This document shows, one piece after another, positions 18,895 to 61,968 of a DNA stretch of 64,000 nt. Below the pieces are notes generated by a model. That model saw only the letters and a program-made list of their open reading frames with translations. It ran no database searches and was not told where the DNA came from. The stretch lies in the NCBI GenBank assembly GCA_964406075.1, contig CAYOQI010000001.1, positions 197,015-261,014 on the forward strand, in the 5' to 3' direction. Position 1 is the stretch's first letter, and each line of letters opens with the position of its first letter. The position numbers and the translations under genes were made by a program. This DNA comes from an uncultured Pseudomonadales bacterium (GTDB lineage: Bacteria; Patescibacteriota; Microgenomatia; UBA1400; PJMF01).

Positions 18895-19425
18895 ATGAAT
18901 AAAACAAAACTACTTGTTCCCGCACTGGCAGTGTTTATCACCGGAGGAGCTCTACTCGGAGCAACGGGAGCGTACGCTCAGGGGAATGGAACGGCCACAT
19001 ACCGCCCAATTGCCCAGAAGATCGCTGACAAATTCGGACTCAAAGTAGAAGACGTCCAATCCGTCTTTGACGAAGAGAGAGCTTCGCATCAAGCTGAATT
19101 CAAACAAAAATATGAGGATCGACTCACGACCGCAGTGACGGAGGGCAAGATCACCGAAGCCCAAAAGCAACTCATCATCCAGAAACATACAGAGATGCAA
19201 ACAAAGATGAAAGAGAACTTGGAAGCTTGGAAAAATTTATCATCTGAAGAAAGGAAAACCAAAATGGAAACCGAACGTCAAGAACTCGAAACTTGGGCAG
19301 AACAAAACGGCATTGACATGAAATATGTTATGCCAAGAATGTTTAAGTTTGAGAAACATGGCGGATTCAGGGGTGAAAGAGGAGATAAAGAGGAGATGAT
19401 GTGGAATAAAAAAATAGCTGAATAA
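18895..19425 (+). CDS. secreted helical protein, function unknown
   Basis: Signal peptide ...GATGAYAQG. Lys/Glu-rich helical body. Strong SD AAAGGAGGG 5 nt upstream of the ATG. Confidence 0.6.
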   Translation: MNKTKLLVPALAVFITGGALLGATGAYAQGNGTATYRPIAQKIADKFGLKVEDVQSVFDEERASHQAEFKQKYEDRLTTAVTEGKITEAQKQLIIQKHTEMQTKMKENLEAWKNLSSEERKTKMETERQELETWAEQNGIDMKYVMPRMFKFEKHGGFRGERGDKEEMMWNKKIAE

Positions 19426-19450
19426 TCCCGACACATTCGTGTCGAAGGAT
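19425..19450 (+). repeat. R1-family hairpin repeat, short degenerate copy
   Basis: ATCC-CGACAC-attc-GTGTCG-AA-GGAT. It has the same ATCC...(G)AAGGAT frame as the other R1 copies but lacks the TGTC lead. Confidence 0.5.
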
Positions 19451-19453
19451 GAA

Positions 19454-19512
19454 CCCCACCTCTCGTGTCTGCCAAAGGCAGACTCGAGTTCCTCCCCAGT
19501 AAATGGGGAGGG
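19454..19512 (+). repeat. R2-family structured repeat, the only plus-strand copy
   Basis: CCCCACCTCTC, then GTCTGCC-AAA-GGCAGAC, then CCTCCCC-AGTAAAT-GGGGAGG. Its box and terminal hairpin are near-identical to the copy at 55772-55831. Confidence 0.7.
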
Positions 19513-19554
19513 ATTCCGGCTGAGTTCGGGACAAGAGACCTAGAGACAAGTACT

Positions 19555-19587
19555 GGACACTTTCATATATTGAAGTGTCCGGTTTTG
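19555..19587 (+). terminator. intrinsic terminator
   Basis: GGACACTT / AAGTGTCC stem followed by GGTTTTG. Confidence 0.6.
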
Positions 19588-19681
19588 TATCAGGAGGACG
19601 ATCAATTGAAAAATCACAGAAATATCCTATAATATCGGCAGTGTTCGATTTTCACCCGGAATACCCGGGAAGGAAAAACAG

Positions 19682-19846
19682 ATGAATGACTTTGAAAGAA
19701 ATGAAGAAGCCGAAGAACAGGAAGATGAGGATGATGGCCTCGGTATAGCTGTCACACTCGCCATCATTTTTGGCGGAGCCGCCATCGGTGTGATTTTCCT
19801 CATTTTCATGTGGTTTATAACCAATGGAGGAATTATTCCTTACTAA
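19682..19846 (+). CDS. small membrane protein (54 aa, below the track cutoff)
   Basis: My translation is MNDFERNEEAEEQEDEDDGLGIAVTLAIIFGGAAIGVIFLIFMWFITNGGIIPY. A GGAAGGA tract lies upstream and a terminator follows. The listed antisense ORFs 19627..19824 and 19652..19882 look spurious. Confidence 0.45.
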   Translation: MNDFERNEEAEEQEDEDDGLGIAVTLAIIFGGAAIGVIFLIFMWFITNGGIIPY

Positions 19847-19862
19847 CACCACTACGCCGTAT

Positions 19863-20662: not shown

Positions 20663-20683
20663 CTCGCCCAATAACCACCTGCT

Positions 20684-30220: not shown

Positions 30221-30250
30221 TAGGCCACTTTCATGAGGTGGCCTATTTTG
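30221..30250 (+). terminator. intrinsic terminator
   Basis: TAGGCCAC-tttcatgag-GTGGCCTA followed by TTTTG. Confidence 0.65.
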
Positions 30251-30500
30251 CATCTACTGGTGAATGGAGTAGCTTTTCTTTTTCTTTTCTCGTTAACTTT
30301 TTGAGTTGAATTTCTCTCCGAAGCGCATCTCCGATCGTTTCAAATGTTTCGGAATACACCAACGTCACTGGCCGGCGAGTTTTGGTATATCGAGCTCCAG
30401 ATTTCAAATTGTTATGAGAATGCAAACGTTTTTCCAAGTTATTGGTGGAGCCAATATAGTAGGTGGAGTCTGCACACTGGAGGATGTAGATGAAGTACAT
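30243..30500 (-). CDS. GIY-YIG nuclease family protein (small, stand-alone)
   Basis: MYFIYILQC...YYIGSTNNLEKRLHSHN. Confidence 0.8.
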   Translation of the reverse strand: MYFIYILQCADSTYYIGSTNNLEKRLHSHNNLKSGARYTKTRRPVTLVYSETFETIGDALRREIQLKKLTRKEKEKLLHSPVDAK

Positions 30501-33215: not shown

Positions 33216-33350
33216 TGTCATTCTGAATACTCAAGTGTATTCACGTGAGATGAAGAATCCCGTCGTTAAAGAAGTGCTAAAAAAAGCAACCTCAATCTTT
33301 CCACCGGATCCTTCGCTTCTCGCGATTACGCAAGAACACTCAGGATGACA
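33216..33350. repeat. Complete R1 element: two R1 hairpin halves in inverted orientation (MITE-like, 135 bp)
   Basis: Left half 33216-33265 is TGTCATTCTGA...GAAGAATCCCGTCG. Right half 33304-33350 is CCGGATCCTTCGC...TCAGGATGACA. The ends form the TIR TGTCATYCTGA/TCAGGATGACA. Homologous to 46434-46573. Confidence 0.7.
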
Positions 33351-45545: not shown

Positions 45546-45609
45546 TGTCATCCTCGACGCGATTCTTTTTTAATTATATTAAAAAAGAAATCGAGCATCG
45601 GGGATCCAG
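45546..45609 (+). repeat. R1-family hairpin repeat, long solo copy
   Basis: TGTCATCCTCGAC-GCGATTCTTTTTTAAT...ATTAAAAAAGAAATCGAGC-ATCGGGGATCCAG. Its outer stem is identical to that of 61906-61968. The inner stem differs but still pairs. Confidence 0.75.
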
Positions 45610-45632
45610 AAAATTAAAGTAACTAAACAACC

Positions 45633-46418: not shown

Positions 46419-46433
46419 TTCACTTGTCTTGTT

Positions 46434-46573
46434 TGTCATCCAGAGTACTCTGGTGTAATCACCAGAAACGAAGGATCCCGTCGATCATTGGAATAAAATG
46501 TTTACTTCGCATCTCAATAGCAACTACCGGATCCTTCACTTCTCGCGAGTACGCTAGAATGTTCTGGATGACA
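46434..46573. repeat. Complete R1 element, inverted pair (MITE-like, 140 bp)
   Basis: Left half 46434-46483 is TGTCATCCAGA...GAAGGATCCCGTCG. Right half 46528-46573 is CCGGATCCTTCAC...TCTGGATGACA. Both halves align with those of 33216-33350. Confidence 0.7.
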
Positions 46574-48628: not shown

Positions 48629-48661
48629 ACGTTAAACTATATTCTGCCCAAAGGAGTTCAT

Positions 48662-48883
48662 ATGTCTCGTGGTATTGAAGAAAGAGGCTACAAGCCTAGT
48701 GAAAGAAGAGATGCCAATGTAAAAATTGGAAAAAAAATTGATGCTGAACTGCTTATGGAGGCAAAAAATACTTTCTTTTGGAGATCAACTTATCCTGGAG
48801 AGAAGGAGAAAGATCCTACTTTAACTGCAGAAGCTTTTTATATTAAATATCAAGGTGACCTAGAACGTGCAATGGGTGTATAG
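48662..48883 (+). CDS. hypothetical protein (73 aa)
   Basis: An AAAGGAG tract lies upstream. Tightly coupled to the next ORF. Confidence 0.4.
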   Translation: MSRGIEERGYKPSERRDANVKIGKKIDAELLMEAKNTFFWRSTYPGEKEKDPTLTAEAFYIKYQGDLERAMGV

Positions 48884-48885
48884 AT

Positions 48886-49350: not shown

Positions 49351-49386
49351 ATTTCGACTGTATTATTTTTCACTATCATCGCTTGA

Positions 49387-49407
49387 ACTTAGCACCTAAA
49401 ACCTAGC
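49387..49407 (-). repeat. Heptad array; plus strand reads ACTTAGC ACCTAAA ACCTAGC
   Basis: Read directly. On the minus strand it gives TAG/TAG/TAA at 7-nt spacing across the rfbB stop. Confidence 0.6.
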
Positions 49408-50371
49408 CCTTCAACGGTTTCCACCAGCCCTCATTATTTTTATACCATTCAGTGGTACGAGTTAAACCTTCTTCAAGCGTTACTGAAGGCGACCAACCAA
49501 GTTCTTGATGGATTTTTGACCAATCCACCGCATATCGTCGATCATGACCTTTTCGATCCTCGACAAACTCAATCTGAGTTTCATCTTTACCCATAATTTG
49601 AAGAATCATTTTCACCACTTCCAGATTACTCACATCTTTCGATAATCCACCAATCAAATACGTATCTTGGTTTTTGCCTTTGGTTAAGACTTCAGCGATG
49701 GCTCGACAGTGATCTTCAACGAACAACCAATCGCGAACATTGAGCCCATCCCCATAGACTGGAACTTTTTCACCTTCAATTAAATTAGTAATAGCTAATG
49801 GAAATAACTTTTCGGGGAAATGGTACGGCCCGTAATTATTTGAACAATTGGTCATCGTGTACGGCAAACCATATGTCTCGCCGTAGGCTCGAACTAAGTG
49901 GTCTGAACCCGCTTTACTTGCAGAATACGGGCTACGCGGATCATACTTCGTATCTTCGTTAAATTTCTCTGAACTTCCTAACTCTAACGACCCAAATACT
50001 TCATCTGTCGAAATATGATGAAAACGCTCAACTCCGGCTTTCAATGCACAATCCAGAAGAACTTGCGTTCCAATCACATTCGTTTGGACAAATATTTGCG
50101 GACCAGTAATAGATCGATCGACATGTGTCTCAGCTGCAAAGTGAACGACATGTGTCACGCCGTGCATAGCTTGAGTAACAGCCTGGGAATCAGTAATGTC
50201 AGCTTTGATAAAAGAATATCGGGAATCGTTTTCAATATCTTTGAGACTTTCCAAGTTACCAGCGTATGTGAGCAAATCAAGATTCACCACTTCAGAATCA
50301 AAATTCTTCAACCAGTAATGGATAAAATTGGAGCCGATAAACCCAGCTCCTCCGGTAACTAAAAGCTTCAT
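49403..50371 (-). CDS. rfbB: dTDP-glucose 4,6-dehydratase
   Basis: LLVTGGAGFIGSNF, YSASKAGSD and the overall RmlB pattern. Confidence 0.9.
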   Translation of the reverse strand: MKLLVTGGAGFIGSNFIHYWLKNFDSEVVNLDLLTYAGNLESLKDIENDSRYSFIKADITDSQAVTQAMHGVTHVVHFAAETHVDRSITGPQIFVQTNVIGTQVLLDCALKAGVERFHHISTDEVFGSLELGSSEKFNEDTKYDPRSPYSASKAGSDHLVRAYGETYGLPYTMTNCSNNYGPYHFPEKLFPLAITNLIEGEKVPVYGDGLNVRDWLFVEDHCRAIAEVLTKGKNQDTYLIGGLSKDVSNLEVVKMILQIMGKDETQIEFVEDRKGHDRRYAVDWSKIHQELGWSPSVTLEEGLTRTTEWYKNNEGWWKPLKG

Positions 50372-50373
50372 AA

Positions 50374-50541
50374 TTAGTTTTCTTGCAACTCTAAATAGCG
50401 AATATTCAATCGATTATATCTTTTTTCAAGCTCTTGAAACTTGGTCAGGTAGTATCCAGCAAACAGTGAAAGTATAAAAATAATCACAACAAGAAATCGA
50501 ATTATCCACAAAAAATGTATCGGCTGTGTATTTTTTTCCAT
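50374..50541 (-). CDS. 55-aa membrane/coiled-coil protein (below the track cutoff)
   Basis: My translation is MEKNTQPIHFLWIIRFLVVIIFILSLFAGYYLTKFQELEKRYNRLNIRYLELQEN. Its TAA stop lies 2 nt before the rfbB ATG. An R2 element lies directly upstream. Confidence 0.4.
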   Translation of the reverse strand: MEKNTQPIHFLWIIRFLVVIIFILSLFAGYYLTKFQELEKRYNRLNIRYLELQEN

Positions 50542-50547
50542 GTGTTT

Positions 50548-50605
50548 TCTCTCCTCGAGGAGAGATCCTCAAGACGACCGAAAGAAGTCATGAGGAAGAG
50601 AGGTG
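50548..50605 (-). repeat. R2-family structured repeat (SD-sequestering hairpin)
   Basis: Minus strand reads CACCTCTCTTCCTCA..TGAGGA-TCTCTCC-TCGA-GGAGAGA-AAACAC-ATG(50541). Confidence 0.7.
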
Positions 50606-50657
50606 TATATTCAGCAATTTAATAATTTAGCAATGTTACAAATACTATCTAACAAAT

Positions 50658-50699
50658 GACCTTTTCCCTTGCACCTTTAACCTCGAACCTGTCCTTATT
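50658..50699 (-). repeat. Heptad array; plus strand reads GACCTTT TCCCTTG CACCTTT AACCTCG AACCTGT CCTTATT
   Basis: Read directly. It ends on the stop codon of the GT2 gene. Confidence 0.7.
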
Positions 50700-51885
50700 T
50701 TTTCTTTCTCCAAATGATTTTTGAATATGCAAAAAAGTTCCAAAACATTCCAGCCAAAATACCAACCACAGCGTAGAAGAAGCCCGTATCAAACTCGATA
50801 CCGATAATTGGAAGTGTGATTAAAGTAAAAAGTCCAATAAATTTTTCTCCCCCAGTGCTAATCAAGAACTGAATGAGTAACGAACCAAGTGAAGTTAAAT
50901 TGAACTGTAAAAATTTGGCTGGAACTTGGACAGCTGTTAACTTTCGATCAGCAAATGTCCATAAATTACTAAAGATAAAATTGGAAATAATCGCCGTTTC
51001 AATACTCAGTAACGTCGCCTCTTGAAAAGCCGACAGAAAGGATACATGATTCACCGGAATTAAATAACGAAAAAGATGAAGAGAACTCAATTGTATTGCT
51101 GCACCAAGCCCACCAACCATGACAAATTTGAATGCTCTCTTCTTCATGAGTTCTTGAATTCGCACTTTGAGAATGTACATAAGTGTATTTTTGATATATT
51201 CAGTACCTAGTTTTGATTCACCAAAGGTTCGATCCACAAATTTGAACGGCACCTCTGCTATTTTGAAACCTCGGCGTACTGCTTTATGTAAAAATCCGAT
51301 TTGGAAAGTATACCCTGAAAATTGATCTGTGTTCATCTCACTTTTCACGGCTTCATATACTTCTTTCTTAATCGCTCGATACCCACTTGTCCAATCATGA
51401 ATTGAAAAATCGGTCAGCACCACGGTAATAATGATATTACCAACTACGCTCAAAAACTTTCGATGCGCTCCCCAATCATCCGGAATTCCACCACCTTCAA
51501 TATACCGCGATCCGAGTACAAAATCATATCCCTGATCAATTTTTTCTAAAAATTGAGGGATTTTGCGCGGGTCATGGGATAAATCAGCATCAAACTCGAA
51601 GATAACATCAGCATCCATATTGTTAAATGCTTCAGCCATTCCCTTTAAATATGCTCCACCTAATCCAGATTTTTTTGGATTAATGAGTAAAGAAACATAC
51701 GGGAGTTTTTTTGAAATTTTTCTGACCACATCTGCGGTTCCATCAGGCGAAGTATCGTCAACGATCAAGACTTCCAGTTTCCAGTCTTTTGATAAAGTGG
51801 AACGCACAGTATCCACAGCCAGGAGAGTCTGCTCGATATTCTCAGCTTCGTTGTACGTAGGGATGATTATGACGGCTTTGGACAT
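50695..51885 (-). CDS. GT2 polyprenol-phosphate glycosyltransferase fused to a GtrA-like membrane domain
   Basis: IIIPTYNEAENI, VDDTSPDGT and DADLSHDP (Dpm1/PPM synthase-like). The C-terminal 4-TM region is GtrA-like. Confidence 0.85.
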   Translation of the reverse strand: MSKAVIIIPTYNEAENIEQTLLAVDTVRSTLSKDWKLEVLIVDDTSPDGTADVVRKISKKLPYVSLLINPKKSGLGGAYLKGMAEAFNNMDADVIFEFDADLSHDPRKIPQFLEKIDQGYDFVLGSRYIEGGGIPDDWGAHRKFLSVVGNIIITVVLTDFSIHDWTSGYRAIKKEVYEAVKSEMNTDQFSGYTFQIGFLHKAVRRGFKIAEVPFKFVDRTFGESKLGTEYIKNTLMYILKVRIQELMKKRAFKFVMVGGLGAAIQLSSLHLFRYLIPVNHVSFLSAFQEATLLSIETAIISNFIFSNLWTFADRKLTAVQVPAKFLQFNLTSLGSLLIQFLISTGGEKFIGLFTLITLPIIGIEFDTGFFYAVVGILAGMFWNFFAYSKIIWRKKK

Positions 51886-52045
51886 GTATTTTTTTTATCT
51901 AAAACATTCACTCTTGTGCTTGTGTGACATACGGACAGGAAAGCCCAATAAACGAGGGGAGATAGAATATACTATCTCTTACATGTGTAAGTATTTCTCA
52001 GTAAATTCGTAAGAAAATTCTTACACATCCCGATTGATTTGAAAA

Positions 52046-53011
52046 TTACACCCGCTCATTTTCCAATTCTGCCTCAACCATCAACGTCACTAATTCCGCA
52101 AAACCAACAGTTGGCTTCCAACCCAGTTTTTGTTGAGCCTTCGAAGCATCACCAACCAATAAATCTACTTCAGCTGGGCGATCATACTTCGGATTGTGTT
52201 TATAAATTGATTTCCAATCATCGATACCGACAGCTTTACACGCTAACTCTAAATACTCTTGAACCGAGTGCGTTTCACCAGTAGCGATGACAAAATCTTC
52301 GGGTGTATCTTGCTGAAGCATTAGCCACATCGCTTCCACATAATCCTTGGCATATCCCCAGTCTCGTTTAGCGTCAAGATTTCCAAGCTCTACCACATCC
52401 TGCTTCCCAAGTTTTATTCTGGCGACAGCATTTGCGATTTTTCTAGTGACAAACTCTAAACCTCGACGTGGGGATTCATGATTAAAAAGAATGCCGGACA
52501 CAGCAAACATGTCAAATGACTCACGATAATTTACCGTAATCCAATGTCCATACACTTTTGCAACACCATATGGAGAGCGAGGATAAAAAGGTGTGGTTTC
52601 TTTTTGTGGTGTTTCTTGGACTTTTCCAAACATTTCTGAACTCGAAGCTTGATAAAATTTTGCCTTTGGATGCGCGTGTTTGACTGCTTCCAACATCCGT
52701 GTCACTCCTATCGCAGTAAACTCACCGGTCAAGACCGGTTGTTCCCAACTTGCCTGAACAAAAGATTGTGCGGCTAAGTTGTAGACTTCATCAGGTTTGA
52801 TTTTTTGAATGGCATTCGTAATGGAATGTTGATCGATCAAATCGCCTGAGATGAGCTCAATTTCATGAATAATATGTTCAATACGGGCAAAGTTTTGTGT
52901 ACTCGTCCGACGAGTCAAACCATAGACTTTGTATCCTTTTTGGAGAAGTAATTCCGCCAAATATGATCCATCTTGGCCGGTAATACCGGCAATAAATGCT
53001 GATTTAGACAT
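52046..53011 (-). CDS. gmd: GDP-mannose 4,6-dehydratase
   Basis: [31 protein letters not shown] and NHESPRRG. Confidence 0.9.
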
Positions 53012-53069
53012 TGTTTTCCTCTTTTTTAGATTAATGTTGTATATTTTTTAGTTTAAAAACTGTAACTTG

Positions 53070-54038
53070 TTAAGCCTTCCCTCGCCACTCTTCTAGCACT
53101 AACTTTAAACTTTCCTCGAGCGGTATTTCTGGTTTCCATCCTAACTTTTTTATCTTGTCACTGTTTGAAACCAGTGGAGAAGTATCGGGTCTCAATCGCG
53201 ATTCATCCGTCTTTACATCGATACTCACCTTCGCATGAGCAATCATCTTATCAAGCAATGATCGCATTGTGTAGCCTTGCCCACTGCCCACGTTATAGAC
53301 TTCACCTCGAACCCCTTTTTCCATCAAGAGCACATACGCTTTGACCACATCTCTCACATCACTCAAATCTCTAATTGGTTCCAAATTCCCGACTTTAACT
53401 TCCTTTTGTTCTCCTCGCTCCACCGCAACAATTTGACTTGCAAACGCTGGAATTGCAAAGTCAGCCGTTTGTCCCAACCCAATGTGGTTAAAAGGTCGCA
53501 CTCGAACAATATCCAACCCATATGAATTTGCATATGCGAGACCCAACAAATCTTGAGTAACTTTGGAAACTGCATACGGCGAAAGTGGTTGCAATGGATC
53601 TTCTTCCGAAAAAGCTATTCCTTCTGACTGGCTCGCCGTTTTTATTCCATATTCGGTTCCACTTCCTATAACTAAGACTCGAGCTTGTGGTGAGTGTTCT
53701 CGAACAGCTTCAAGCACATTCAGTTGAAGAGTAAGGTTATTGTGAAAAACTTCAGCCGCCCGTTCAAAACTCGCACCAACTATTGAGATCGCCGCCAGAT
53801 GAAATATCCAATTCGGTTGAATAGCTTTAATCAGCTCAAACACCGCCGAATGATTTGTCAGATCAAGACTCATGTATCGAACTTTTTCAGAAAAAGAAAT
53901 GTTTTTAGGAGCTGTATGTGAAAAACCCGTCGCCACAATTTGACAATCAAATGTTTTATCAAGCAACTCGATTAAATGACGACCAGCAAATCCAGTTCCC
54001 CCGGTCACTAAAATTGTTTTTGGCTGTGAAGCATCCAT
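53070..54038 (-). CDS. NAD-dependent epimerase/dehydratase, GDP-4-dehydro-6-deoxy-D-mannose reductase (Rmd)-like
   Basis: ILVTGGTGFAGRHL, SPYAVSK and RPFNHIGLGQ. Adjacent to gmd. Start placed at MDASQPK (54038), because the track start at 54110 lies inside the R2 repeat. Confidence 0.7.
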   Translation of the reverse strand: MDASQPKTILVTGGTGFAGRHLIELLDKTFDCQIVATGFSHTAPKNISFSEKVRYMSLDLTNHSAVFELIKAIQPNWIFHLAAISIVGASFERAAEVFHNNLTLQLNVLEAVREHSPQARVLVIGSGTEYGIKTASQSEGIAFSEEDPLQPLSPYAVSKVTQDLLGLAYANSYGLDIVRVRPFNHIGLGQTADFAIPAFASQIVAVERGEQKEVKVGNLEPIRDLSDVRDVVKAYVLLMEKGVRGEVYNVGSGQGYTMRSLLDKMIAHAKVSIDVKTDESRLRPDTSPLVSNSDKIKKLGWKPEIPLEESLKLVLEEWRGKA

Positions 54039-54047
54039 AAAAGTATG

Positions 54048-54106
54048 GCTTCTCTCCTTTGGGAGAGAAGCCTGGTAATCCAGGCAGTGAGGGGAGAATG
54101 ATCTCC
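54048..54106 (-). repeat. R2-family structured repeat (SD-sequestering hairpin)
   Basis: Minus strand reads GGAGATCATTCTCC-CCTCACTG-CCTGG-atta-CCAGG-CTTCTCTCC-CAA-AGGAGAGAAG-CCATACTTTT-ATG(54038). Confidence 0.75.
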
Positions 54107-54123
54107 GCACTTATTGCCATTGT

Positions 54124-54165
54124 TTCAACTGTCTCTAACCTCTAATCTCAATTCTCTTACTTGAT
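54124..54165 (-). repeat. Heptad array; plus strand reads TTCAACT GTCTCTA ACCTCTA ATCTCAA TTCTCTT ACTTGAT
   Basis: Read directly, in the divergent intergenic region before trmD. Confidence 0.6.
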
Positions 54166-54173
54166 GATAAAAT
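54165..54173 (+). promoter_or_regulatory. Candidate extended -10 (TGATAAAAT) that would give a leaderless trmD mRNA
   Basis: TGaTAAAAT ends 6 nt before the ATG at 54180. No SD. Confidence 0.3.
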
Positions 54174-54179
54174 CTTACC

Positions 54180-54917
54180 ATGCGTATAACCATTTTGACA
54201 CTTTTTCCTGAGATGTTCACTGGAGCTTTTTCACACTCCATGCTCAAACGTGCCCAGGATAAAAAATTGCATGATACTCCTCCACTTGAAATAGGAATCA
54301 TTAATATTCGAGATTTTGCTACAGATAAACATCAAACGACGGATGACCGTCCATACGGTGGTGGAGCCGGCATGGTAATGAAAGTCGAACCAATCGATCT
54401 TGCACTCCAGTATGTTCTCTCCCCCTCTAGGGGGAGAACTCAGGCGAGTTATCTGAAAGAAACTCGCCTGATAAGAGAGGGGGAAAGCTCCAAAAGTCAA
54501 ATAACTGCCTCGAAATCCTCAACCAAAATAATCCTCACCTCCGCCAAAGGGAAACTCTTTGGGCAACAAACAGCACAAGTGTATAGTCAGCTTGATCACT
54601 TAGTGATTATCTGTGGTCATTACGAAGGAGTCGATCAACGAGTTGCTGATCATTTAGTTGATGAAGAAGTTCGAATTGGAGATTATGTTTTAACAGGTGG
54701 TGAACCTGCCGCAGCAGTGATAACGGATGCCGTGGCTCGTTTACTTCCAGGAGTTTTAGGAAATGACGTCAGCGCGACTCACGAATCTCACTCTGAACCA
54801 GGATATTTAGAACATCCTCAATACACTCGTCCCGAAAAATATAACGATTGGGAAGTGCCTAAAGTCCTTTTACAAGGGAATCACAAAGAGATTGATGACT
54901 GGAGAAGTAAAAAATAA
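54180..54917 (+). CDS. trmD: tRNA (guanine37-N1)-methyltransferase carrying an in-frame insertion of about 24 codons derived from an R2 repeat
   Basis: ILTLFPEMF, DDRPYGGGAGMVM, CGHYEGVDQRV, IGDYVLTGGE and HPQYTRP. There are extra residues between PIDLAL and KIILTSAKG. Confidence 0.9.
   Translation: MRITILTLFPEMFTGAFSHSMLKRAQDKKLHDTPPLEIGIINIRDFATDKHQTTDDRPYGGGAGMVMKVEPIDLALQYVLSPSRGRTQASYLKETRLIREGESSKSQITASKSSTKIILTSAKGKLFGQQTAQVYSQLDHLVIICGHYEGVDQRVADHLVDEEVRIGDYVLTGGEPAAAVITDAVARLLPGVLGNDVSATHESHSEPGYLEHPQYTRPEKYNDWEVPKVLLQGNHKEIDDWRSKK
54416..54485 (-). repeat. R2-family structured repeat located inside the trmD coding sequence (antisense orientation)
   Basis: Plus strand reads TCTCCCCC-tcta-GGGGGAGA-ACTCAG-GCGAGTT-(11 nt)-AACTCGC-CTGATAAGA-GAGGGGGAA. 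The architecture matches the copies at 54048 and 58827. Confidence 0.75.
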
Positions 54918-54925
54918 AGCGTAAT

Positions 54926-55759
54926 TTATACAATTACTTTCTTCAATTTTTCTACATTCAACGCAGTATTTTTTTGGTATGGTCGCTTCGCAGTTCTCAA
55001 ATATTCTTTGAGACTTCCTGGGCGTACTTCTCCCGCTAATCCAAATTGTTCTTTTACTTTGAGTGCAAATTGATAATCAGTCGTCACTGGATCTGTGGAC
55101 GCATGATATAAACCAGTGATTTTTTCTTTGATAACAAAATTAAAAGTATCGGCCAGTTTTTCTATCTGAGTTGGAGTAAAACTGTGATCAATAAACATGG
55201 GTTGGAGTTTATCTTCTTCCAAAAGTTTCTTTATCCGATGCATGACATCCATTTTGGGAAAATCATCTTGACGATAGGGAAATGCGATCCGAAGAATCGT
55301 GTACTCTGCACCTGACTTCTCCACTTCTTCTTCTGCCCAAGCTTTTGTCTGCCCATACCACTCAATAGGATTCACAGAATCTTCCTCCGTGTACAATCCT
55401 TTTTTCTCTCCATCAAATACAAAATCAGTCGAAATATGAATAAGATGTTTGCCAAAATCTTTGGCAGCTTGAGCCATGTTACGTGTTCCCAGGACATTTA
55501 CGGCATACGCAATCCCAGATTTGTCTCCAGTCTCGGCAAAGGCTGCATTTACATCTGTGAACGCTGCAAGGTGGATGATTGTGTTGGCTGTACTTTTTTC
55601 AATTATTTTTTTGATTTGTTTTTCATCAGTAATATCAATACCCGTCGCTCGATCTAGATTGGTAAACTCATACGTATCTGTATACAGATCAACAAACTTT
55701 GAACCAACTAAACCAGATAAACCCGTCCCAATAATTTCCACTTTTTTATTTTTTGTCAT
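54926..55759 (-). CDS. dTDP-4-dehydrorhamnose reductase (RmlD)-like SDR
   Basis: IIHLAAFTDVNAA, HISTDFVFDG and YGQTKAWAE. Confidence 0.7.
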   Translation of the reverse strand: MTKNKKVEIIGTGLSGLVGSKFVDLYTDTYEFTNLDRATGIDITDEKQIKKIIEKSTANTIIHLAAFTDVNAAFAETGDKSGIAYAVNVLGTRNMAQAAKDFGKHLIHISTDFVFDGEKKGLYTEEDSVNPIEWYGQTKAWAEEEVEKSGAEYTILRIAFPYRQDDFPKMDVMHRIKKLLEEDKLQPMFIDHSFTPTQIEKLADTFNFVIKEKITGLYHASTDPVTTDYQFALKVKEQFGLAGEVRPGSLKEYLRTAKRPYQKNTALNVEKLKKVIV

Positions 55760-55771
55760 ACCTATTTAATA

Positions 55772-55831
55772 CCTCCCCATTTATTAGGGAGGACCTCGAA
55801 TCGAATGATAATGAGATTCAGAGAGGTGGGG
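55772..55831 (-). repeat. R2-family structured repeat (SD-sequestering hairpin)
   Basis: Minus strand reads CCCCACCTCTC-TGAATC..GATTCGAG-GT-CCTCCC-taataaat-GGGGAGG-(12 nt)-ATG(55759). Confidence 0.7.
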
Positions 55832-55952
55832 TTACTCGTTTTTTTCTCACCACTCTTCCCCGTCCACCGGCAGGAAACCTCTAACCTCTCGCAACGAAGT
55901 ATAGTAATTTTATAAACAAAACAAAAGGGGAAAGATCGATCCATTTATCGGA

Positions 55953-56210
55953 TTAAAACGTCAGGAGGAAAATTATTGTCCCTGCGAGTAGTGCTGCAAA
56001 AAGATACTCTTTTACAATGGCCGTGGTGAGGTGACTTGACTTGACGTGAGTTAAAATTCCCCAGAAAAAATACATGGCTGATAATGATCCCGCCACAATT
56101 CTCATTCCCGGTCTCGACGGCCACAAGGACAGAAATGCAATCACATGTCCAACCAGTAACACAATCAGAATGGCATATGCAAATTTATGTCGAGATATTT
56201 CATTAAACAT
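55953..56210 (-). CDS. small membrane protein (85 aa, 3 TM)
   Basis: Hydrophobicity pattern. Last gene of the co-directional fibre-locus string. Confidence 0.45.
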   Translation of the reverse strand: MFNEISRHKFAYAILIVLLVGHVIAFLSLWPSRPGMRIVAGSLSAMYFFWGILTHVKSSHLTTAIVKEYLFAALLAGTIIFLLTF

Positions 56211-56259
56211 GAGTTCCTTTTACTTAAGGCTTATTTCAACAAATTAGTTCACTACTTCA

Positions 56260-57342
56260 CTACGCTCCCACTACTCCACCTTTAAAGAAAATAATGAGAA
56301 ACAGGATCGTGATAAAAAGAGCAATGTGAGCAAAATTTTTCCCTACAAACCGAATCGTATTCAATTTTTCGATCACCATCGTATCGTAAATCAAGACGGC
56401 AATGACCAACAGCACGAGTGCCAAAAAGACCGCTTTTGAAAGGTGGAGAGGTGAAAAAAGTGGTGGACGTTCGATGTTTTGAATATACTCGACACTTTCT
56501 CTAAAAAGTTCTGGCGTGGCCAATACTTCAGGCTGTGCTTCCTCACTATTTTCTGTCATCACGGGCGGTTCCTGATCTTGACCGACAACTTCGTCGACTT
56601 GATTGATCACATCTTCTACTGCTTGCTCAGGATTTACCATTTCCCCAGTGACTTCATCAATAGCAGCTAAGGCTTGGGAATTTGCAACTGGAGCAGTCGT
56701 AGCTACAGGTTGAGGTGTTTTTTGCGGAGTGATCGCTCCCGTTCTACGAGTCGCGGCTGTACTTCCAAACATTTGAACTACCAACGTAGTCTCTGTTCCA
56801 TTGAGCACTCCATCGACCACCGCAATTCCAATTTCTTTATATCGAGTGTTCACAATATTTTCTTTATGGGTTGGCGAATTCATCCATGCTCTCATCATGT
56901 CTTCCGATTCCATAAAATCACGCGCCAGGTTTTCACCTGCAATAGTGTAACGATAGCCTGCCGTCTTCATGAACTGCCAAGGCGTTTTCCCTTTCGGCGA
57001 ATAGTGTGCCCAGTATTGATCAGCAAACATATCTCTGGCTTTGGCCAGTGCGGCATCACTCAGTTGTTTGTTGACGACTAATTCTCCCGTTCCAGCTTTG
57101 ACCCGTTCTTTATTGGTCAGCTCTACCACTTGAGTAGGAGTAATCGATGAAGAGTAGCCTAAAATTGTTCCTTGTTCAGACGACACACCACGAAGAATTC
57201 CGACTCCAGATCGAAAAATAACGACCAACAATAACAGAACTAGAAAACCTTCTGGATGCAAAATCCTCGGCCGATGATTATTCGAATGCCGAGGATGGAA
57301 AAGATGGGCAAATGTTTCAAAAACTTGCATGAATATATCCAT
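56260..57342 (-). CDS. CAP/SCP (YkwD-like) domain protein flanked by N- and C-terminal TM segments
   Basis: LTNKERVKAG...ARDMFADQYWAHYSP...AGENLA...AWMNSPTHKENI matches YkwD-type CAP domains. Start placed at MDIFMQ, because the track start at 57393 uses the CAT of an R1 repeat. Confidence 0.8.
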   Translation of the reverse strand: MDIFMQVFETFAHLFHPRHSNNHRPRILHPEGFLVLLLLVVIFRSGVGILRGVSSEQGTILGYSSSITPTQVVELTNKERVKAGTGELVVNKQLSDAALAKARDMFADQYWAHYSPKGKTPWQFMKTAGYRYTIAGENLARDFMESEDMMRAWMNSPTHKENIVNTRYKEIGIAVVDGVLNGTETTLVVQMFGSTAATRRTGAITPQKTPQPVATTAPVANSQALAAIDEVTGEMVNPEQAVEDVINQVDEVVGQDQEPPVMTENSEEAQPEVLATPELFRESVEYIQNIERPPLFSPLHLSKAVFLALVLLVIAVLIYDTMVIEKLNTIRFVGKNFAHIALFITILFLIIFFKGGVVGA

Positions 57343-57387
57343 TATGCTGAATTTTTTATCTGAAAACAAGGTATTTTTACAGTGTAA

Positions 57388-57420
57388 TGTCATCCCGACC
57401 GAAGTGGAGGGATCCCTGTC
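57388..57420 (+). repeat. R1-family hairpin repeat, short form
   Basis: TGTCATCCCGACCGAAGTGGAGGGATCCCTGTC. Confidence 0.65.
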
Positions 57421-57476
57421 ACGAGGTACACACAGACATTAGAAAACATTGAAGCAAAATAATCTGAAGATTTTAT

Positions 57477-58820
57477 TTAATTAATGCGAAATCTACGAAC
57501 TAACCCACGCCCCAACCAGCTCCCAATTCCTACTCCTCCAGCCAATAACCAATACCACTGACATAACCAGTGTAACCATGAGCCTGGTTCACAATCACAG
57601 CTACTTAACGTATAGAAAAAGTAAATGGAAGTCAGAATGAAAATAAAATCGGCACCAAGATGGAATGAATGTATTTTTTTTCGGAGTAATACATGATTTG
57701 CACCGTGACCAATTGCTTGTAGTAATAAAATAATGAGCGCCAGCCACATTCCATCCTGAGCACACTCCATCACTTCAGTCGCACTTGTTCCTAAAATAAA
57801 CGGAATAACTCCTGACAGAAATGGTTCTGGAGTGGGTGAGGGTTCGATTACATCTCCTAGTACTTCCCCATCGCTAAATCCAAGTGGAGCAGTAAAGGCA
57901 CCTGCAATAGCCGGTTGTCCTGTGGTCGCAACTTCATTCGATCGAGGTCCCGGTGCACATCCATTTATACCGAGTACTTGAAAGTAGTATTGAGTATTTG
58001 GAGTTAAGCCTGAAACTGTATAACTGGTCACATTGCCAACACTATTATTTCCAAATAAATAAACACCTGGTTGGACGCCAAAATTAATAGCATATGTCGT
58101 GACTGGTGAAACTGCTGACCATGCCAACGTCACTTGTCCATTCGCATTCACAATTCCCGGCACAAAAAGTTGAGGGGCAGAACTGGGTAGTTGATCGGTA
58201 CACGGTAGAGCAAAAGCATCCGTTGTCGTTCCGGCTACTGAGTTGAATGAGGTCGATGAAGTGGTTGAAATAGGCGTAGGTGTTGGAGGAGTCGGAAATG
58301 GTGTTAATTGAACTGCTACTTCAACATCAAATACGGTCTGTTTACCTTGAAATTGATTTCCCGAACTTGGATCAAATGTCGCAATGAACGCATATGTTTG
58401 AGTTTGTTGAGCAAGCAGGGGAGAGTAGGAGAGTAAGCTGGAAGAATTTAGTAAACTTTCCAAACTCTGAGAACTCATCACCACTTCCCCACTTTCTGTG
58501 TCTTTTCGAATTTCTATAAAAATTGCTGATGCCAAAGATTGATCGGTGACACCACTTGAACCCATCGCTTGCCAAGCCGGATACAAGGTCTCATTGGTCA
58601 TATTCGTAATAGCGAGGTGTTGAACAAATCTATCACCAGGTAATGTGTTCGTTTCTGAGAAAAGTTGGGCATTTGATGGAGTGATCACACAATCATCAAT
58701 TTCATTTGAACCAAAACAGATGACAGACAAATCTTGGCTTTGTGAGGATGCAAAAATCGGCTTGGTGAATCCAATGTAAAAAATAAAAAGGAAAATGAAG
58801 AAGGAAAAAAATTTAGGCAT
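57477..58820 (-). CDS. secreted TasA-like domain + Pro/Thr linker + fibronectin type III domain + Cys-rich 3-TM C-terminal anchor
   Basis: Signal peptide ...KPIFASS. LPGDRFVQHLAITN and GNQFQGKQTVFDVEVAVQ match the TasA/camelysin hallmarks PGD and QG...F.F.A.Q. FN3 signature VTLAWSAV...YTVSGLTPNTQYYFQV. The hydrophobic C-terminus contains CDCEPG/WLC. Confidence 0.65.
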   Translation of the reverse strand: MPKFFSFFIFLFIFYIGFTKPIFASSQSQDLSVICFGSNEIDDCVITPSNAQLFSETNTLPGDRFVQHLAITNMTNETLYPAWQAMGSSGVTDQSLASAIFIEIRKDTESGEVVMSSQSLESLLNSSSLLSYSPLLAQQTQTYAFIATFDPSSGNQFQGKQTVFDVEVAVQLTPFPTPPTPTPISTTSSTSFNSVAGTTTDAFALPCTDQLPSSAPQLFVPGIVNANGQVTLAWSAVSPVTTYAINFGVQPGVYLFGNNSVGNVTSYTVSGLTPNTQYYFQVLGINGCAPGPRSNEVATTGQPAIAGAFTAPLGFSDGEVLGDVIEPSPTPEPFLSGVIPFILGTSATEVMECAQDGMWLALIILLLQAIGHGANHVLLRKKIHSFHLGADFIFILTSIYFFYTLSSCDCEPGSWLHWLCQWYWLLAGGVGIGSWLGRGLVRRFRIN

Positions 58821-58826
58821 GGATCA

Positions 58827-58878
58827 TCTCTCCTTTGGGAGAGAACTCAAGCCCGATAGGGCCTGAGAGTGAGGGGCG
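58827..58878 (-). repeat. R2-family structured repeat (SD-sequestering hairpin)
   Basis: Minus strand reads CGCCCCTCACTCTCAG-GCCC-tatc-GGGC-TTGAGT-TCTCTCC-CAA-AGGAGAGA-TGATCC-ATG(58820). Confidence 0.75.
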
Positions 58879-58890
58879 TTAATATTTTAT

Positions 58891-58911
58891 ATCTTGAATC
58901 TTAGATCTCAG
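58891..58911 (-). repeat. Heptad array; plus strand reads ATCTTGA ATCTTAG ATCTCAG
   Basis: Read directly. It overlaps the stop codon of 58908..59855. Confidence 0.6.
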
Positions 58912-59855
58912 TTTTGCCAATCAAGTGGAAACGTCAGAGTATCTGTAATTTCTTGATTGTTCAGTAATTCCAACGTGACGGTCAAGCCAGCGACTTCCAG
59001 GTGAGGATTGCAACTCTGTTCATCTTCGGTGCACGTCCCGACATAGACATCTGGCATTTCAAACTCACCAAACGCATCTCGTTCTATCTGATTGGTTACA
59101 ACTTCCTCCACTGTTTCTCCATCTTTGACATGAGTATAGGTAAAGGTTTGCTTGATCGAGGTAACCTCATCATTCATCAACACTTGAGAAAGTAAGAACT
59201 CTCCGAGCTGAGTAACTTTGACTCCTTTTTCATTCATCAATACTTTTTCGTATATTTCAGTTGCTCCAGCTTCTGTCTGTGCCCCTTCAAGAATTTGTGA
59301 ATAGGTTGCTGGTTTTTCACCGGTGATCATAGCGACATCTTGAAATCCACCTAAGACTTCACCTTGCCAAGCCTCAGCCATAATTTTCACTTCACATGCA
59401 TGTGTATTGTCAGGATAAATTAATTGGTACCACCACTGCGTTTCTTCTTCAGACAGTAAAGAAAATGCTTGTCCTTGCTCTTCAGCCAGAGAGAGTGCAG
59501 TCAGTTTTCCAGAAAAAAGTGGAGTATCATCCGAACTGTTTTTCCATACCTCGATGTTAATACCTTCACAATTCACATCAGGATCGGGAGTCACTTCCCC
59601 CACAATCCGATACACAAAAGGTCGAGATCCAATATTTTTCACCATAAAACTTGAACGTTCGTTTTGAGGGGAATCTGTTACTGCTAATCTTGAAAGGTTG
59701 GAAGTCAAAGAGGTAACTTCTATATCCAGTGAACCTGTTCCCCACTGACTCACTTCTCCAACTTCCCGATCATGTGAGTACGACAATGTAGTTGGGATGA
59801 GTATGCTCATGACCAACGCCAACATGCCAGTAATTCGAACAATATGTTTTTTCAT
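58908..59855 (-). CDS. secreted protein with a divergent TasA-like N-terminal domain and an extra C-terminal domain
   Basis: Signal helix, then SHDREVGEVSQWGTGSLDIEV (compare FSDTETSxxNxFxAGSIDL). The later CEVKIMAEAWQ resembles the F.F.A.Q end motif. Confidence 0.5.
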   Translation of the reverse strand: MKKHIVRITGMLALVMSILIPTTLSYSHDREVGEVSQWGTGSLDIEVTSLTSNLSRLAVTDSPQNERSSFMVKNIGSRPFVYRIVGEVTPDPDVNCEGINIEVWKNSSDDTPLFSGKLTALSLAEEQGQAFSLLSEEETQWWYQLIYPDNTHACEVKIMAEAWQGEVLGGFQDVAMITGEKPATYSQILEGAQTEAGATEIYEKVLMNEKGVKVTQLGEFLLSQVLMNDEVTSIKQTFTYTHVKDGETVEEVVTNQIERDAFGEFEMPDVYVGTCTEDEQSCNPHLEVAGLTVTLELLNNQEITDTLTFPLDWQN

Positions 59856-59863
59856 TTCTTATC

Positions 59864-59914
59864 TGTCATCCTGAACATTCTTGAGTAATTTCAAGAAGTG
59901 AAGGATCCCGTCGG
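59864..59914 (+). repeat. R1-family hairpin repeat, solo copy
   Basis: TGTCATCCTGAACATTCTTGA-gtaatt-TCAAGAAGTGAAGGATCCCGTCGG. Confidence 0.75.
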
Positions 59915-59950
59915 GAACTGAAATACTTTGAAAACTCGGCTAAATTATCA

Positions 59951-59999
59951 ATCTACTAAATACCAACTACTAATTACTAATTACTAATTACTACTTTCT
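59951..59999 (-). repeat. Heptad array with three perfect tandem AATTACT units
   Basis: ATCTACT AAATACC AACTACT AATTACT AATTACT AATTACT ACTTTCT. It overlaps the last codons and TAG stop of the signal peptidase gene. Confidence 0.8.
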
Positions 60000-60843
60000 T
60001 TTCTCCACCATCAATATGAAGAACGTGATTCATTTTTTGTTTCGCAAGTGTCTTCATGCTCAAAACAGGTGCCGGATTCAGTCGATGCGATTCGAGAGGT
60101 ATGAACGTAATCGGTTTTCTCGGTCGTCGAATTGAAACATCAGTTTCCGCAATGCTCCCAGCTTTTTTTGCTTCAACATGTTTTTTAACAACATGATGAA
60201 CGGCTACAGGCGTTTTAATTTTCGGTGTTTCGCCTACCTGTTTTCGACCTTGGGTGATGATCACCATTTGTTTGCCTTCAGCTTTCCATCCACTTTTGGG
60301 TTCCCGTTTTATCATTTTCACTACTTCACCTTTTATGGCGATCAATTCTGAATACAGCAAAATTGTTGCAGGCACCACGATCATGATGATGAATCCCATT
60401 TGTGTTTGAGCAAACGAAATAATGCGTCCGACATACGGAAGGTGAACAAACACTTTCCCCACCACTCTATTGGCTGGGATGACTTCCCGATCTATTTCTT
60501 CATTAGCATCACCTTTGAGCGTGTATTGAGGAGCACTTCCTTCTGTTTTTGAAACGATTCGATGCGTGACTGTTTCTGTCGGATCTTTCGCTCCTTGTAC
60601 CGTGATCACATCATTCACGGCATATGTTGACTGTGGCATCACAATCACCAAGCTTCCCATTGAGATGGCCGGCTCCATTGAGCCTGACAGCACCGCAAAA
60701 AGTTTTAGTTTAAAAGGGGTATTAATTGTTGAAAGAACAATCACTGCAGCCACCAAAACCATCAGCAAAATAAAGAGATTGTAGGAAATTCCTACAGCTC
60801 CTTTCACTACATTCGCCGGTGTCACTTTTCTGCCTGTTTTCAT
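59977..60843 (-). CDS. sipW: signal peptidase I, ER/archaeal (SipW) type, with a basic C-terminal tail of about 118 aa
   Basis: N-terminal TM segment, LSGSMEPAI (catalytic Ser box), THRIV (His box), KGDAN and a second TM segment. The tail covers residues 171-288. Confidence 0.85.
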   Translation of the reverse strand: MKTGRKVTPANVVKGAVGISYNLFILLMVLVAAVIVLSTINTPFKLKLFAVLSGSMEPAISMGSLVIVMPQSTYAVNDVITVQGAKDPTETVTHRIVSKTEGSAPQYTLKGDANEEIDREVIPANRVVGKVFVHLPYVGRIISFAQTQMGFIIMIVVPATILLYSELIAIKGEVVKMIKREPKSGWKAEGKQMVIITQGRKQVGETPKIKTPVAVHHVVKKHVEAKKAGSIAETDVSIRRPRKPITFIPLESHRLNPAPVLSMKTLAKQKMNHVLHIDGGEKKVVISN

Positions 60844-60850
60844 CCTATAT

Positions 60851-60913
60851 TCTTAAAATCTCGCTTCCTGTTTCTTTAATCTCTCATCTTAATTTTAACT
60901 GACCGTTACTAAC
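60851..60913 (-). repeat. Heptad array of about 9 units; plus strand reads TCTTAAA ATCTCGC TTCCTGT TTCTTTA ATCTCTC ATCTTAA TTTTAAC TGACCGT TACTAAC
   Basis: Read directly. It fills the intergenic region between paralogue P1 and sipW. Confidence 0.6.
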
Positions 60914-61784
60914 TCCCCGTTAAATCAGGATTACACACAAAGTCAGGGTTGTTTCTAGATTGTTCCGCATAGAAAGACACGTTTCCTTCCATACTATCTG
61001 TCTGTGACACATTCGTCACCAATATTCCTTCACACTCTAAGCCAGTCGTATTTCGGATCATCGGCCCTTCTGTTGTGAGATTATCTTGAGTTACTACTGG
61101 ATCAAGTGGCGCAAGTTCACCATAACACCATGCTTGTCCGATAAAGTACTCTTCCTCACCGGTCACTGGACCGGTAAAGTCATCCCCTGGTCCCGCCGTG
61201 CTTGCTTTCCAAATATTCAATGTTGTATCTGCGAGTGGGAAACGAATCCCGCCATTGTCATCACCTTGCAAAAATTCGGAAGCTTTTCCTGCAATCAAGA
61301 AACCGTCAGCTTCATTTTCTTCCAAAACGTTATCTCCATCATCTGCCCAGAACATATAGCTCAACTCGTCATCAAGTTCGCCATCCCAATTGCCATTGGC
61401 AAGATCATCACCGTCGTTCGTTTCAGGAGTGGTTGCGACATTTTCCGCAGCACCCGTGAGCTCGATATCCATACACAAGTATGAATCGTTGTCATCCACT
61501 CGTAAACTAATAGTATCCTCGGTCATGTCTCCGGGTTTGAAATCTTCAAGGTTAAAAAAAAGTTCATCTTCTAAATCCGTCAGGGACCAAGTACTTGCCG
61601 AAATCGAAGACACCAGTCCATCTCGGATCAGATAACTCGCATTACCAACTTTTAGATCAATTGATCCTGCCACAAATGTATTATTGGAAGAAGTCTCTGT
61701 ATCAGAGAAAAACGCTTGTGTGCCAAAGATGAGGGCACTGATCGCACCGACAATCAACACTCCACTTAAAAGTATTCTTCGCAT
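60909..61784 (-). CDS. TasA/camelysin-like secreted protein with a SipW-cognate-type signal (paralogue P1)
   Basis: MRRILLSGVLIVGAISALIFGTQAFFSDTETSSNNTFVAGSIDL, FKPGDMTEDTISLRV and SQTDSMEGNVSFYAEQSRNNPDFVC. Four Cys are conserved with P2 and P3. Confidence 0.8.
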   Translation of the reverse strand: MRRILLSGVLIVGAISALIFGTQAFFSDTETSSNNTFVAGSIDLKVGNASYLIRDGLVSSISASTWSLTDLEDELFFNLEDFKPGDMTEDTISLRVDDNDSYLCMDIELTGAAENVATTPETNDGDDLANGNWDGELDDELSYMFWADDGDNVLEENEADGFLIAGKASEFLQGDDNGGIRFPLADTTLNIWKASTAGPGDDFTGPVTGEEEYFIGQAWCYGELAPLDPVVTQDNLTTEGPMIRNTTGLECEGILVTNVSQTDSMEGNVSFYAEQSRNNPDFVCNPDLTGS

Positions 61785-61905
61785 AAAAAATTCCTTTCAC
61801 CGTAAAATGTAATCTAAAACAACATCTCTAAATAAAGAAAAAAATCGCCTACTCCACTTCGTTTTATATCCTAATTTCGCAAGAAGTCAAATTGCGACCT
61901 AATTT

Positions 61906-61968
61906 TGTCATCCTCGACCTGAATCAATTTAAATTTATTAAAATTGAATTCAAGATCGGGGATCCAGG
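61906..61968 (+). repeat. R1-family hairpin repeat, long solo copy
   Basis: TGTCATCCTCGAC-CTGAATCAATTTAAAT...ATTAAAATTGAATTCAAG-ATCGGGGATCCAGG. Confidence 0.75.

Follow-up and report, generated by a model that had tools for sequence, protein, structure and literature searches.

What are the R1 repeats, short hairpins that recur singly and as inverted pairs along a 64,000-nt stretch of contig CAYOQI010000001.1 (positions 197,015 to 261,014, forward strand; hereafter the window) from an uncultured bacterium of the Patescibacteriota, and what would act on them? The probable answer, reached by analogy with published systems, is that R1 is a strand-specific family of DNA hairpins within the (C/T)GTC-tagged superfamily of repetitive extragenic palindromes (REPs) and that its members serve as targets of nucleases of the Ssn type.

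Nine R1 halves, one of them degenerate, are found in the window, all of them intergenic, and four of the nine make up two inverted dimers. Reading of the sequence confirmed every copy at the position given in the original prediction, which had been made from the letters alone, with the single correction that the degenerate copy lies on the minus strand. The copies are as follows.

19425..19450, minus strand: degenerate R1 resembling form 3 (TTCATCCTTCGACACGAATGTGTCGGGATT), with a mutated tag and a fold of -7.4 kcal/mol (z -3.1).
33216..33266, plus strand: R1 form 1, left arm of dimer 1, reading TGTCATTCTGA, inner hairpin, GAAGAATCC and CGTCG; it matches the regular expression, and its outer and inner stems both fold.
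33300..33350, minus strand: R1 form 1, right arm of dimer 1, 85% identical to 46526-46573.
45546..45609, plus strand: solo R1 form 3, with a TGTC tag, an 8-bp outer stem ATCCTCGA/TCGGGGAT, a long AT-rich inner hairpin and a CCAG tail.
46434..46484, plus strand: R1 form 1, left arm of dimer 2, between a methyltransferase gene and rny.
46523..46573, minus strand: R1 form 1, right arm of dimer 2, with inner tail CGGTAGTTGCTATTG.
57388..57420, plus strand: solo R1 short form, GTCATCCCGACCGAAGTGGAGGGATCC, which provides the upstream ATG of open reading frame (ORF) 56260-57393 (minus strand).
59864..59914, plus strand: solo R1 form 1, antisense to ORF 58908-59855 (minus strand) and 9 nt upstream of its start.
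61906..61968, plus strand: solo R1 form 3, in the same frame as 45546-45609 and with an unrelated inner hairpin.

Form 1 (five copies of about 50 nt) reads TGTCATYC-WGA, an inner hairpin and GAAGRATCC, and form 3 (two copies of 63-64 nt) reads TGTCATCCTCGAC, an AT-rich hairpin and ATCGGGGATCCAG. The pattern GTCATYC..RGGATCC matches five times in the window against 0.06 expected, and a stricter regular expression matches six times against 0.14 expected. A relaxed scan of the window gave no additional convincing R1, and an extra TGTCATCC at 61490 stands without a partner. The two units of 135-140 bp are inverted dimers, as had been described, with their TGTCAT ends outward, their hairpin cores 45 and 50 nt apart and right halves whose reported likeness amounts to the 85% identity given above. 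The warning that the repeats generate spurious ORF starts and peptides was also sound: the ATG at 57393 lies inside a repeat, with the next methionine 17 codons on, and ORF 46424-46795 runs through a dimer, a place at which an identical Logan contig has no gene called.

A close examination of the individual copies reveals a common anatomy, composed of an unpaired 5' TGTC tag, a 5-bp outer stem (ATCCT/AGGAT) often followed by a tandem G·A or internal loop, a loop position that tolerates an arbitrary extra hairpin and therefore varies from copy to copy, and a C right after the palindrome with a short tail, in units of 25-64 nt. Single-strand DNA folds recovered the outer ATCC(T)/(A)GGAT together with the inner stem in 8 of the 9 window copies, the minimum-free-energy fold of 46434..46484 containing the inner stem only; the copy at 45546..45609 folds at -14.9 kcal/mol (z -5.4). 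RNAalifold on the five form-1 window copies gave 15 pairs, and in 7 of these both bases vary while the pairing is preserved. The outer stem of 33216..33266 has T-A where other copies have C-G, and the core of 57388..57420 differs from GTCATTCCGACCGAAGTGGAGGAATC, found in another genome (L049), solely in one compensated pair of the stem, T-A in place of C-G. Among 284 copies collected with a looser pattern from the window and from at least 119 loci elsewhere, outer-stem position 2 is C-G in 227, T-A in 50 and mismatched in 7, and position 4 is T-A in 243 and C-G in 27. The frame GTC-AT...AT-C is present in every copy, with invariant A-T and T-A pairs. The tag reads TGTC in 511 and CGTC in 43 of 554 R1 copies (TGTC in 8 of the 9 window halves), and the 3' tail of 45546 and 61906 is CCAG, that of other copies CCCG, CCGG or CTGC. 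The structure of R1 is under selection, and the earlier claim of a conserved outer pairing with inner stems that differ yet stay paired is borne out. Of 335 distinct copies, 277-288 fold better on the tagged strand than on the complementary one, a bias that is partly inherent in the motif because a tandem G·A turns into C·T on the other strand.

The loci outside the window come from a scan of species-representative genomes with the pattern TGTCATCCWGA-N18-32-GAAGGATCC, which returned at least 119 of them, with a neighbourhood of about 8 kb sampled per genome. The frame TGTCATCC-WGA…GAAGGATCC occurs in more than 10 phyla, mostly as inverted dimers, and the matches listed include Acidobacteriota, Chloroflexota, Fibrobacter, Patescibacteria/candidate phyla radiation (CPR), Clostridia, Verrucomicrobiota, Proteobacteria, Spirochaetota, Armatimonadota, Gemmatimonadota and Melainabacteria. 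Nearly all matches listed read TGTCATCCTGAGCG[R]AG, a GC-rich hairpin of their own and G[R]AGTCGAAGGATCC, the inner hairpin being paired and specific to the copy, and short versions of 25-26 nt such as GTCATCCTGAGCGAAGCGAAGGATC are frequent. Close pairs are inverted with tags outward in 51 of 76 cases (median spacer 30 nt), a predominance which makes the window dimers the standard arrangement. R1 is the local version of a repeat spread over many phyla and is not specific to this lineage.

Some of these genomes also hold more elaborate arrangements. A gammaproteobacterial metagenome-assembled genome (L021, 4827-5535) carries a six-fold tandem array of 124-bp units with two inverted R1 halves each, and a tandem array of R1 occurs in L041 as well. 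Two loci (L113 and L158) have nested copies, with a second CCCTGA..GAAGGG core within the first loop, an arrangement suggestive of growth at the loop, by insertion or by snap-back. In six Acidobacteriota loci (L025 at 3878-4100, L046, L056, L095, L119 and L120) R1 is followed by a conserved segment, GGATCC-AGGCGAGCCGCGCG..., and L025 carries a tandem duplication of the complete 125-bp unit; the conserved extension and this duplication indicate that lineage-specific composite elements exist. A separate GC-rich hairpin away from R1 in L025 (6566-6612, minus strand) matches the Rfam family Acido-Lenti-1 at 44.7 bits.

Two published hairpin families come close to R1. The CGTC-tagged REPs carry an unpaired tag, CGTC or frequently TGTC, together with a stem that starts with A-T and T-A and a CCA-like tail; inverted dimers prevail among them, they lie mostly in intergenic regions between same-direction or convergent genes, they are without an associated transposase, and both dRS3 of Neisseria and RPE-4 and RPE-6 of Rickettsia are members (PMC3733652). 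The dRS3 repeat has been extended to the 28-nt NTS, CGTCATTCCCGCGMAVGCGGGAATCYRG, which is the target of SsnA, a single-domain GIY-YIG protein of 94 amino acids (CDD cd10448) that binds NTS as single-stranded DNA only, and on one strand, cuts a few nt upstream, and binds neither RNA nor double-stranded DNA (Chenal et al. 2025, PMC11893778). In the same work cutting depends on the three bases before the NTS palindrome (GTC) and binding on the C that follows it, loop content is ignored, its replacement or extension being tolerated, and motifs of the related SRM type lie near 71% of ssnA homologues (PMC11893778).

R1 shares with the CGTC-tagged REPs the unpaired CGTC/TGTC tag, the A-T/T-A start of the stem, the inverted dimers, the intergenic location and the lack of a linked transposase, and it is arranged as they are, with 51 of 76 pairs facing tags outward and only 6 of 69 copies in a divergent gene context. 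It differs from them in its stem, which is interrupted and carries long variable inserts, whereas theirs is continuous over 8-9 bp with a loop of 4-5 nt (form 3 has an 8-bp outer stem like theirs but a 40-nt insert), and in its occurrence in phyla outside the list of that paper, namely CPR/Patescibacteria, Acidobacteriota, Chloroflexota, Fibrobacterota and Bacillota. The tail, which is of CC(A) type in the REPs, is CCA-like in R1 for the two form-3 copies only. With NTS and SRM it has in common an oriented hairpin with 5' (C/T)GTC-AT, a stem, a loop and a return stem ending in AT-C and followed by YNB, so that GTC lies upstream and a C right after the palindrome; the NTS frame CGTCATTCCCGCG..GCGGGAATCYRG matches that of R1. 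Free loop content, hundreds of intergenic copies per genome and a small nuclease gene flanked on both sides by inverted copies are further common traits. The stem is ATCCTGA../..GAAGGAT with a tandem G·A in R1 and ATTCCCGCG/CGCGGGAAT in NTS, and R1 often has an extra hairpin of 10-40 nt in its loop; the tolerance of NTS for loop extensions fits these variable inner hairpins. Integron attC sites are likewise single-strand-specific hairpins with conserved end motifs and structure and a free central part, but have other end motifs, a tyrosine recombinase as partner and an organisation in cassette arrays. R1 is a sequence subtype of the CGTC/TGTC-tagged REPs and Ssn-related hairpins and not a new system. 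Its function, given as unknown in the original prediction, would be narrowed by this analogy in tag and frame (PMC3733652, PMC11893778).

The connection to an enzyme comes from genes that R1 brackets in other genomes. A profile search of the R1-selected loci identified three Ssn-like genes, of which the one in L040 is bracketed by R1 and the one in L065 is broken by it. From homologues of the L040 protein (40 aligned), 80 metagenome loci were fetched by Ssn-like protein alone, and 46 of them contain R1-type copies, amounting to 108 copies over 193 kb where 0.05 would be expected by chance. Where both flanks were available (59 loci), R1 lies within 500 bp on both sides in 21 and on one side in 12. 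The usual layout is a plus-strand R1 55-90 bp before the ATG and a minus-strand R1 60-75 bp after the stop, most upstream copies being (+) and most downstream ones (-). In many cases the two copies of such a pair are identical, with a common inner tail, GGATC-TGCGGTTGCTTTTC, and so constitute true terminal inverted repeats of a unit of about 450 bp; the inner tail CGGTAGTTGCTATTG of 46523..46573 in the window resembles it. The only R1-ended genes found encode a GIY-YIG nuclease of 96-117 amino acids, with no transposase among them. R1 in other genomes flanks single-domain GIY-YIG genes in the manner of SRM motifs (L040, the 46 of 80 loci, and the 21 of 59 with copies on both sides); R1-flanked genes of this kind include those in L135 and L137 and the one for protein P0122 of Occallatibacter savannae. 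Judging from their motifs and from the 48% identity between the L040 type and an NTS-flanked protein of a relative (L274, described below), the R1-flanked proteins are putatively of the cd10448 type.

An inverted R1 pair that brackets a GIY-YIG gene elsewhere makes the window dimers, in which the tags likewise face outward, look like gene-less versions of the same unit. The description of the dimers as similar to miniature inverted-repeat transposable elements (MITEs) was apt in this sense, the same inverted pair forming the terminal inverted repeats around a small GIY-YIG gene in other genomes. We infer that the dimers derive, as forms lacking the gene, from an R1-ssn-R1 unit, much as REPINs (REP doublets forming hairpins) relate to a REPtron, and the solo copies would then be half-elements. 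A cognate Ssn-type nuclease, presumably encoded outside the window, would recognise them on single-stranded DNA that is exposed when DNA is replicated or foreign DNA is taken up. With regard to strand, the tagged strand is the plus strand in all four intact solo copies (45546-61968), GC skew is negative in 15 of 16 4-kb sub-windows, and most genes from 49 kb on are on the minus strand; taken together, and with a small sample, this suggests that the cuttable strand may avoid the lagging-strand template.

Relatives of the window, identified via RNase Y homologues, permit a comparison of empty and filled sites; a homologue named for Paceibacterota and an RNase Y named for Cerribacteria hint weakly at a CPR-like lineage. 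In L266 and L267 (RNase Y 83% identity) the spacer between the DUF4349 and methyltransferase genes is 52 bp, compared to 140 bp in the window. The 45546 copy is missing from it, and the methyltransferase-rny spacer keeps the conserved rny leader but has no counterpart of the 46434-46573 dimer. L266 has dimers of its own, at the start of its contig and in the interval between two epimerase genes, which in the window is a spacer of just 58 bp. No R1-type match is present in L270, and its spacer corresponding to the 57388 site measures 51 bp, compared with 83 bp for that of the window. The more diverged L274 (RNase Y 72% identity, GC 48%) carries at 8940-9320 an Ssn-like gene for 96 amino acids between epimerase and UDP-glucose dehydrogenase genes, a site at which L271 has a 30-bp spacer only; TGTCATTCCCGCGCAGGCAGGAATCCAG ends one base before its ATG, and an inverted partner follows its stop. 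This gene, together with the empty and filled sites, indicates that the lineage hosts Ssn units and that hairpin copies turn over. Only two positions separate the upstream hairpin of L274 from the NTS consensus of Neisseria meningitidis, a striking likeness for such distant bacteria. As a side observation, the non-coding leader upstream of rny (46600-46960) is strongly conserved with L266, e.g. AAATTTTGTACAATRTGCAYACTGT, and contains a possible ORF of 36 codons (46685-46795; MENIFSNYSRNTSL...) with 55% protein identity in L266, not found in more distant relatives.

Several results weigh against Ssn-type nucleases as the partners of R1. The Ssn unit of L274 is flanked by hairpins of the Neisseria NTS type and not by the R1 subtype. 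No R1 lies within 500 bp in 26 of the 59 Ssn-like loci. None of the 554 R1 copies fits the SRM pattern HGTCWYN(0-2)YYVSBRHN(0-5)WNVSBRGN(0-2)RNCYNB, which a Neisseria NTS control passes. At the compared sites there is neither a target-site duplication nor a clean excision footprint, so that of the two signs of mobility sought in related strains the empty sites (45546 and 46434-46573) were found and the duplications were not. No Ssn protein is known to cut an R1-type hairpin or to move DNA. Finally, the 64-kb window has no Ssn gene of the cd10448 type, and no R1 was found in eight loci around three orthologues (60-75% identical) of its only GIY-YIG gene:

30243..30500, minus strand: the only GIY-YIG gene in the window, 85 amino acids, single domain, UPF0213/YhbQ type, with no flanking R1.

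The product of this gene matches Pfam PF01541 (E = 2e-19), has the UPF0213 proteins 1ywl and 1zg2 as best PDB matches, and scores 45 bits with the Ssn-like profile, versus 108 for a true Ssn-like gene. The gene sits 25 nt downstream of ORF 30526-31296, in an operon, with a simple terminator hairpin after it. At E <= 1e-8 there are 248 homologues of its product, and the best 120 of these 248 are 58-74% identical, plus one 99% copy. As the cognate nuclease the product is unsupported, its operon being free of R1, and its UPF0213 type and the R1-free loci of its orthologues make it a candidate partner at most.

A further step would be to see in the R1-ssn-R1 units a new mechanistic class of autonomous mobile element, in which a GIY-YIG nuclease of about 100 amino acids takes the place of a transposase, with the dimers and solo copies as non-autonomous progeny; we regard this as possible but rather doubtful. 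Transposition of DNA is not a known activity of GIY-YIG nucleases acting on their own. Among IMG/VR contigs classed as viral, 57 stretches (L209-L265) hold 168 R1 copies in 550 kb, and one of them (L227, 4.2 kb) has six copies between 926 and 3781. No Ssn-like gene is present in these 57 stretches, and the sample gave no sign of a phage as vehicle; the R1-bearing contigs may be host flanks or misclassified.

Four other explanations were weighed, at the RNA level, by REP-associated tyrosine transposases (RAYTs), by recombinases and as classical MITEs, and each is weaker than the assignment of R1 to Ssn-type nucleases. The one that survives best, albeit with a small chance of being right, is that R1 acts in RNA, as a 3' mRNA stabiliser, a terminator or a processing hairpin for RNase III or RNase Y, much as has classically been suggested for REPs, and that the link to Ssn is incidental. 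The hairpins fold well and are intergenic, and among 69 copies with classified context at the R1-selected loci 46 lie between same-direction, 17 between convergent and 6 between divergent genes, a bias equally known for the tagged REPs (PMC3733652). However, at 57388, 59864 and 61906 the two neighbouring genes lie on the same strand as each other and R1 is antisense to them, and transcripts would hold the weaker complement, with C·U replacing G·A. No U-tract follows the hairpins in the window, and Rfam, searched in gathering and E-value modes with the window and 18 loci, has no family matching R1. SsnA does not act on RNA, binding neither RNA nor double-stranded DNA (PMC11893778), and a role in RNA leaves unexplained both the conserved unpaired TGTC tag and the use of R1 as the ends of nuclease genes; the suggestion of an RNA processing site is therefore not favoured.

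Less probable still, and compatible with R1 being a set of Ssn targets, is that site-specific recombinases, IS110-type elements or filamentous phages are the main users of the copies, as attachment or target sites. This would agree with the citation of dRS3 as a phage recombinase target (PMC11893778) and with the presence of R1 at variable points in otherwise syntenic regions, but no recombinase, insertion sequence or prophage junction adjoins R1 in the window, and none is among the recurrent neighbours at the R1-selected loci. Mobilisation of R1 as a REP/REPIN by a Y1/HUH transposase (RAYT) is improbable. REPtrons, as REP/REPIN-RAYT systems are called, do share with R1 a tag of four unpaired nt and a hairpin, tandem arrays like bacterial interspersed mosaic elements (as in L021), and inverted doublets that resemble gene-less copies of a unit with a repeat-bracketed gene. 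Their tag is GTAG, however, where R1 has TGTC or CGTC (511 and 43 copies), and their enzyme is a Y1 HUH transposase and not a GIY-YIG nuclease; around 131 R1 copies GIY-YIG is the sole recurrent neighbour family, a tyrosine transposase not being among the recurrent neighbours in about 8 kb per genome, and no tyrosine transposase flanked by CGTC REPs was found in the published survey either (PMC3733652). That the dimers are ordinary MITEs derived from a DDE-type insertion sequence is very improbable, for in spite of their 135-140-bp size and inverted ends (TGTCATYCWGA/TCWGGATGACA) neither dimer has a target-site duplication, a parent insertion sequence was not found, each end is a hairpin with covarying stems, solo halves are frequent, and the only gene with such ends is that of the 96-117-residue GIY-YIG nuclease. 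A hammerhead or other ribozyme (GUC/CUGA/GAA) is dismissed on core spacing, which does not fit, and on the silence of Rfam.

The original prediction had also linked such repeats to four-helix-bundle genes, a link that is not supported: PF05635 is outside the 25 commonest Pfam families among 93 small R1-adjacent ORFs from at least 119 genomes, and literature citing PF05635 contained nothing on R1-type repeats. Neighbours of R1 are thioredoxins, ribosomal proteins and other housekeeping genes, and on clustering only GIY-YIG recurs. A literature search on the motif string returned primer sequences only, an exact-protein look-up of three R1-flanking proteins returned no record, and a metagenome scan with ORF 57477-58820 did not find relatives.

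Other repeats were seen in the window as well. A second family has inverted copies at 19481-19515 and 55768-55802, which are 86% complementary and each contain a CCTCCCCA..TGGGGAGG hairpin, the former copy lying 30 nt from the degenerate R1. A 38-nt direct repeat (37958-37995 and 38828-38865; 84% identical, 870 bp apart) falls within ORF 37142-39136 (minus strand) and is probably an internal protein repeat; its TTCATCCTTGCCCC..GAAGTGGGGAC has a faint likeness to the R1 frame.

For annotation, a nuisance repeat of metagenome-assembled genomes that is a source of spurious ORF starts acquires a name through the assignment, and a partner that can be tested. The assignment also extends the pairing of Ssn enzymes and hairpins to a subtype outside the published pattern and to CPR/Patescibacteria, and, if it is true, the SRM search pattern misses what is possibly the most widespread subtype. 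The R1 hairpins with their Ssn enzymes would also be new specificities for tools that cut single-stranded DNA. The turnover of sites among close relatives bears on the question of Ssn units as mobile elements, and if they are such elements, horizontal spread would explain the near-identical 25-nt frame from CPR to Acidobacteriota, Chloroflexota, Fibrobacterota and Bacillota.

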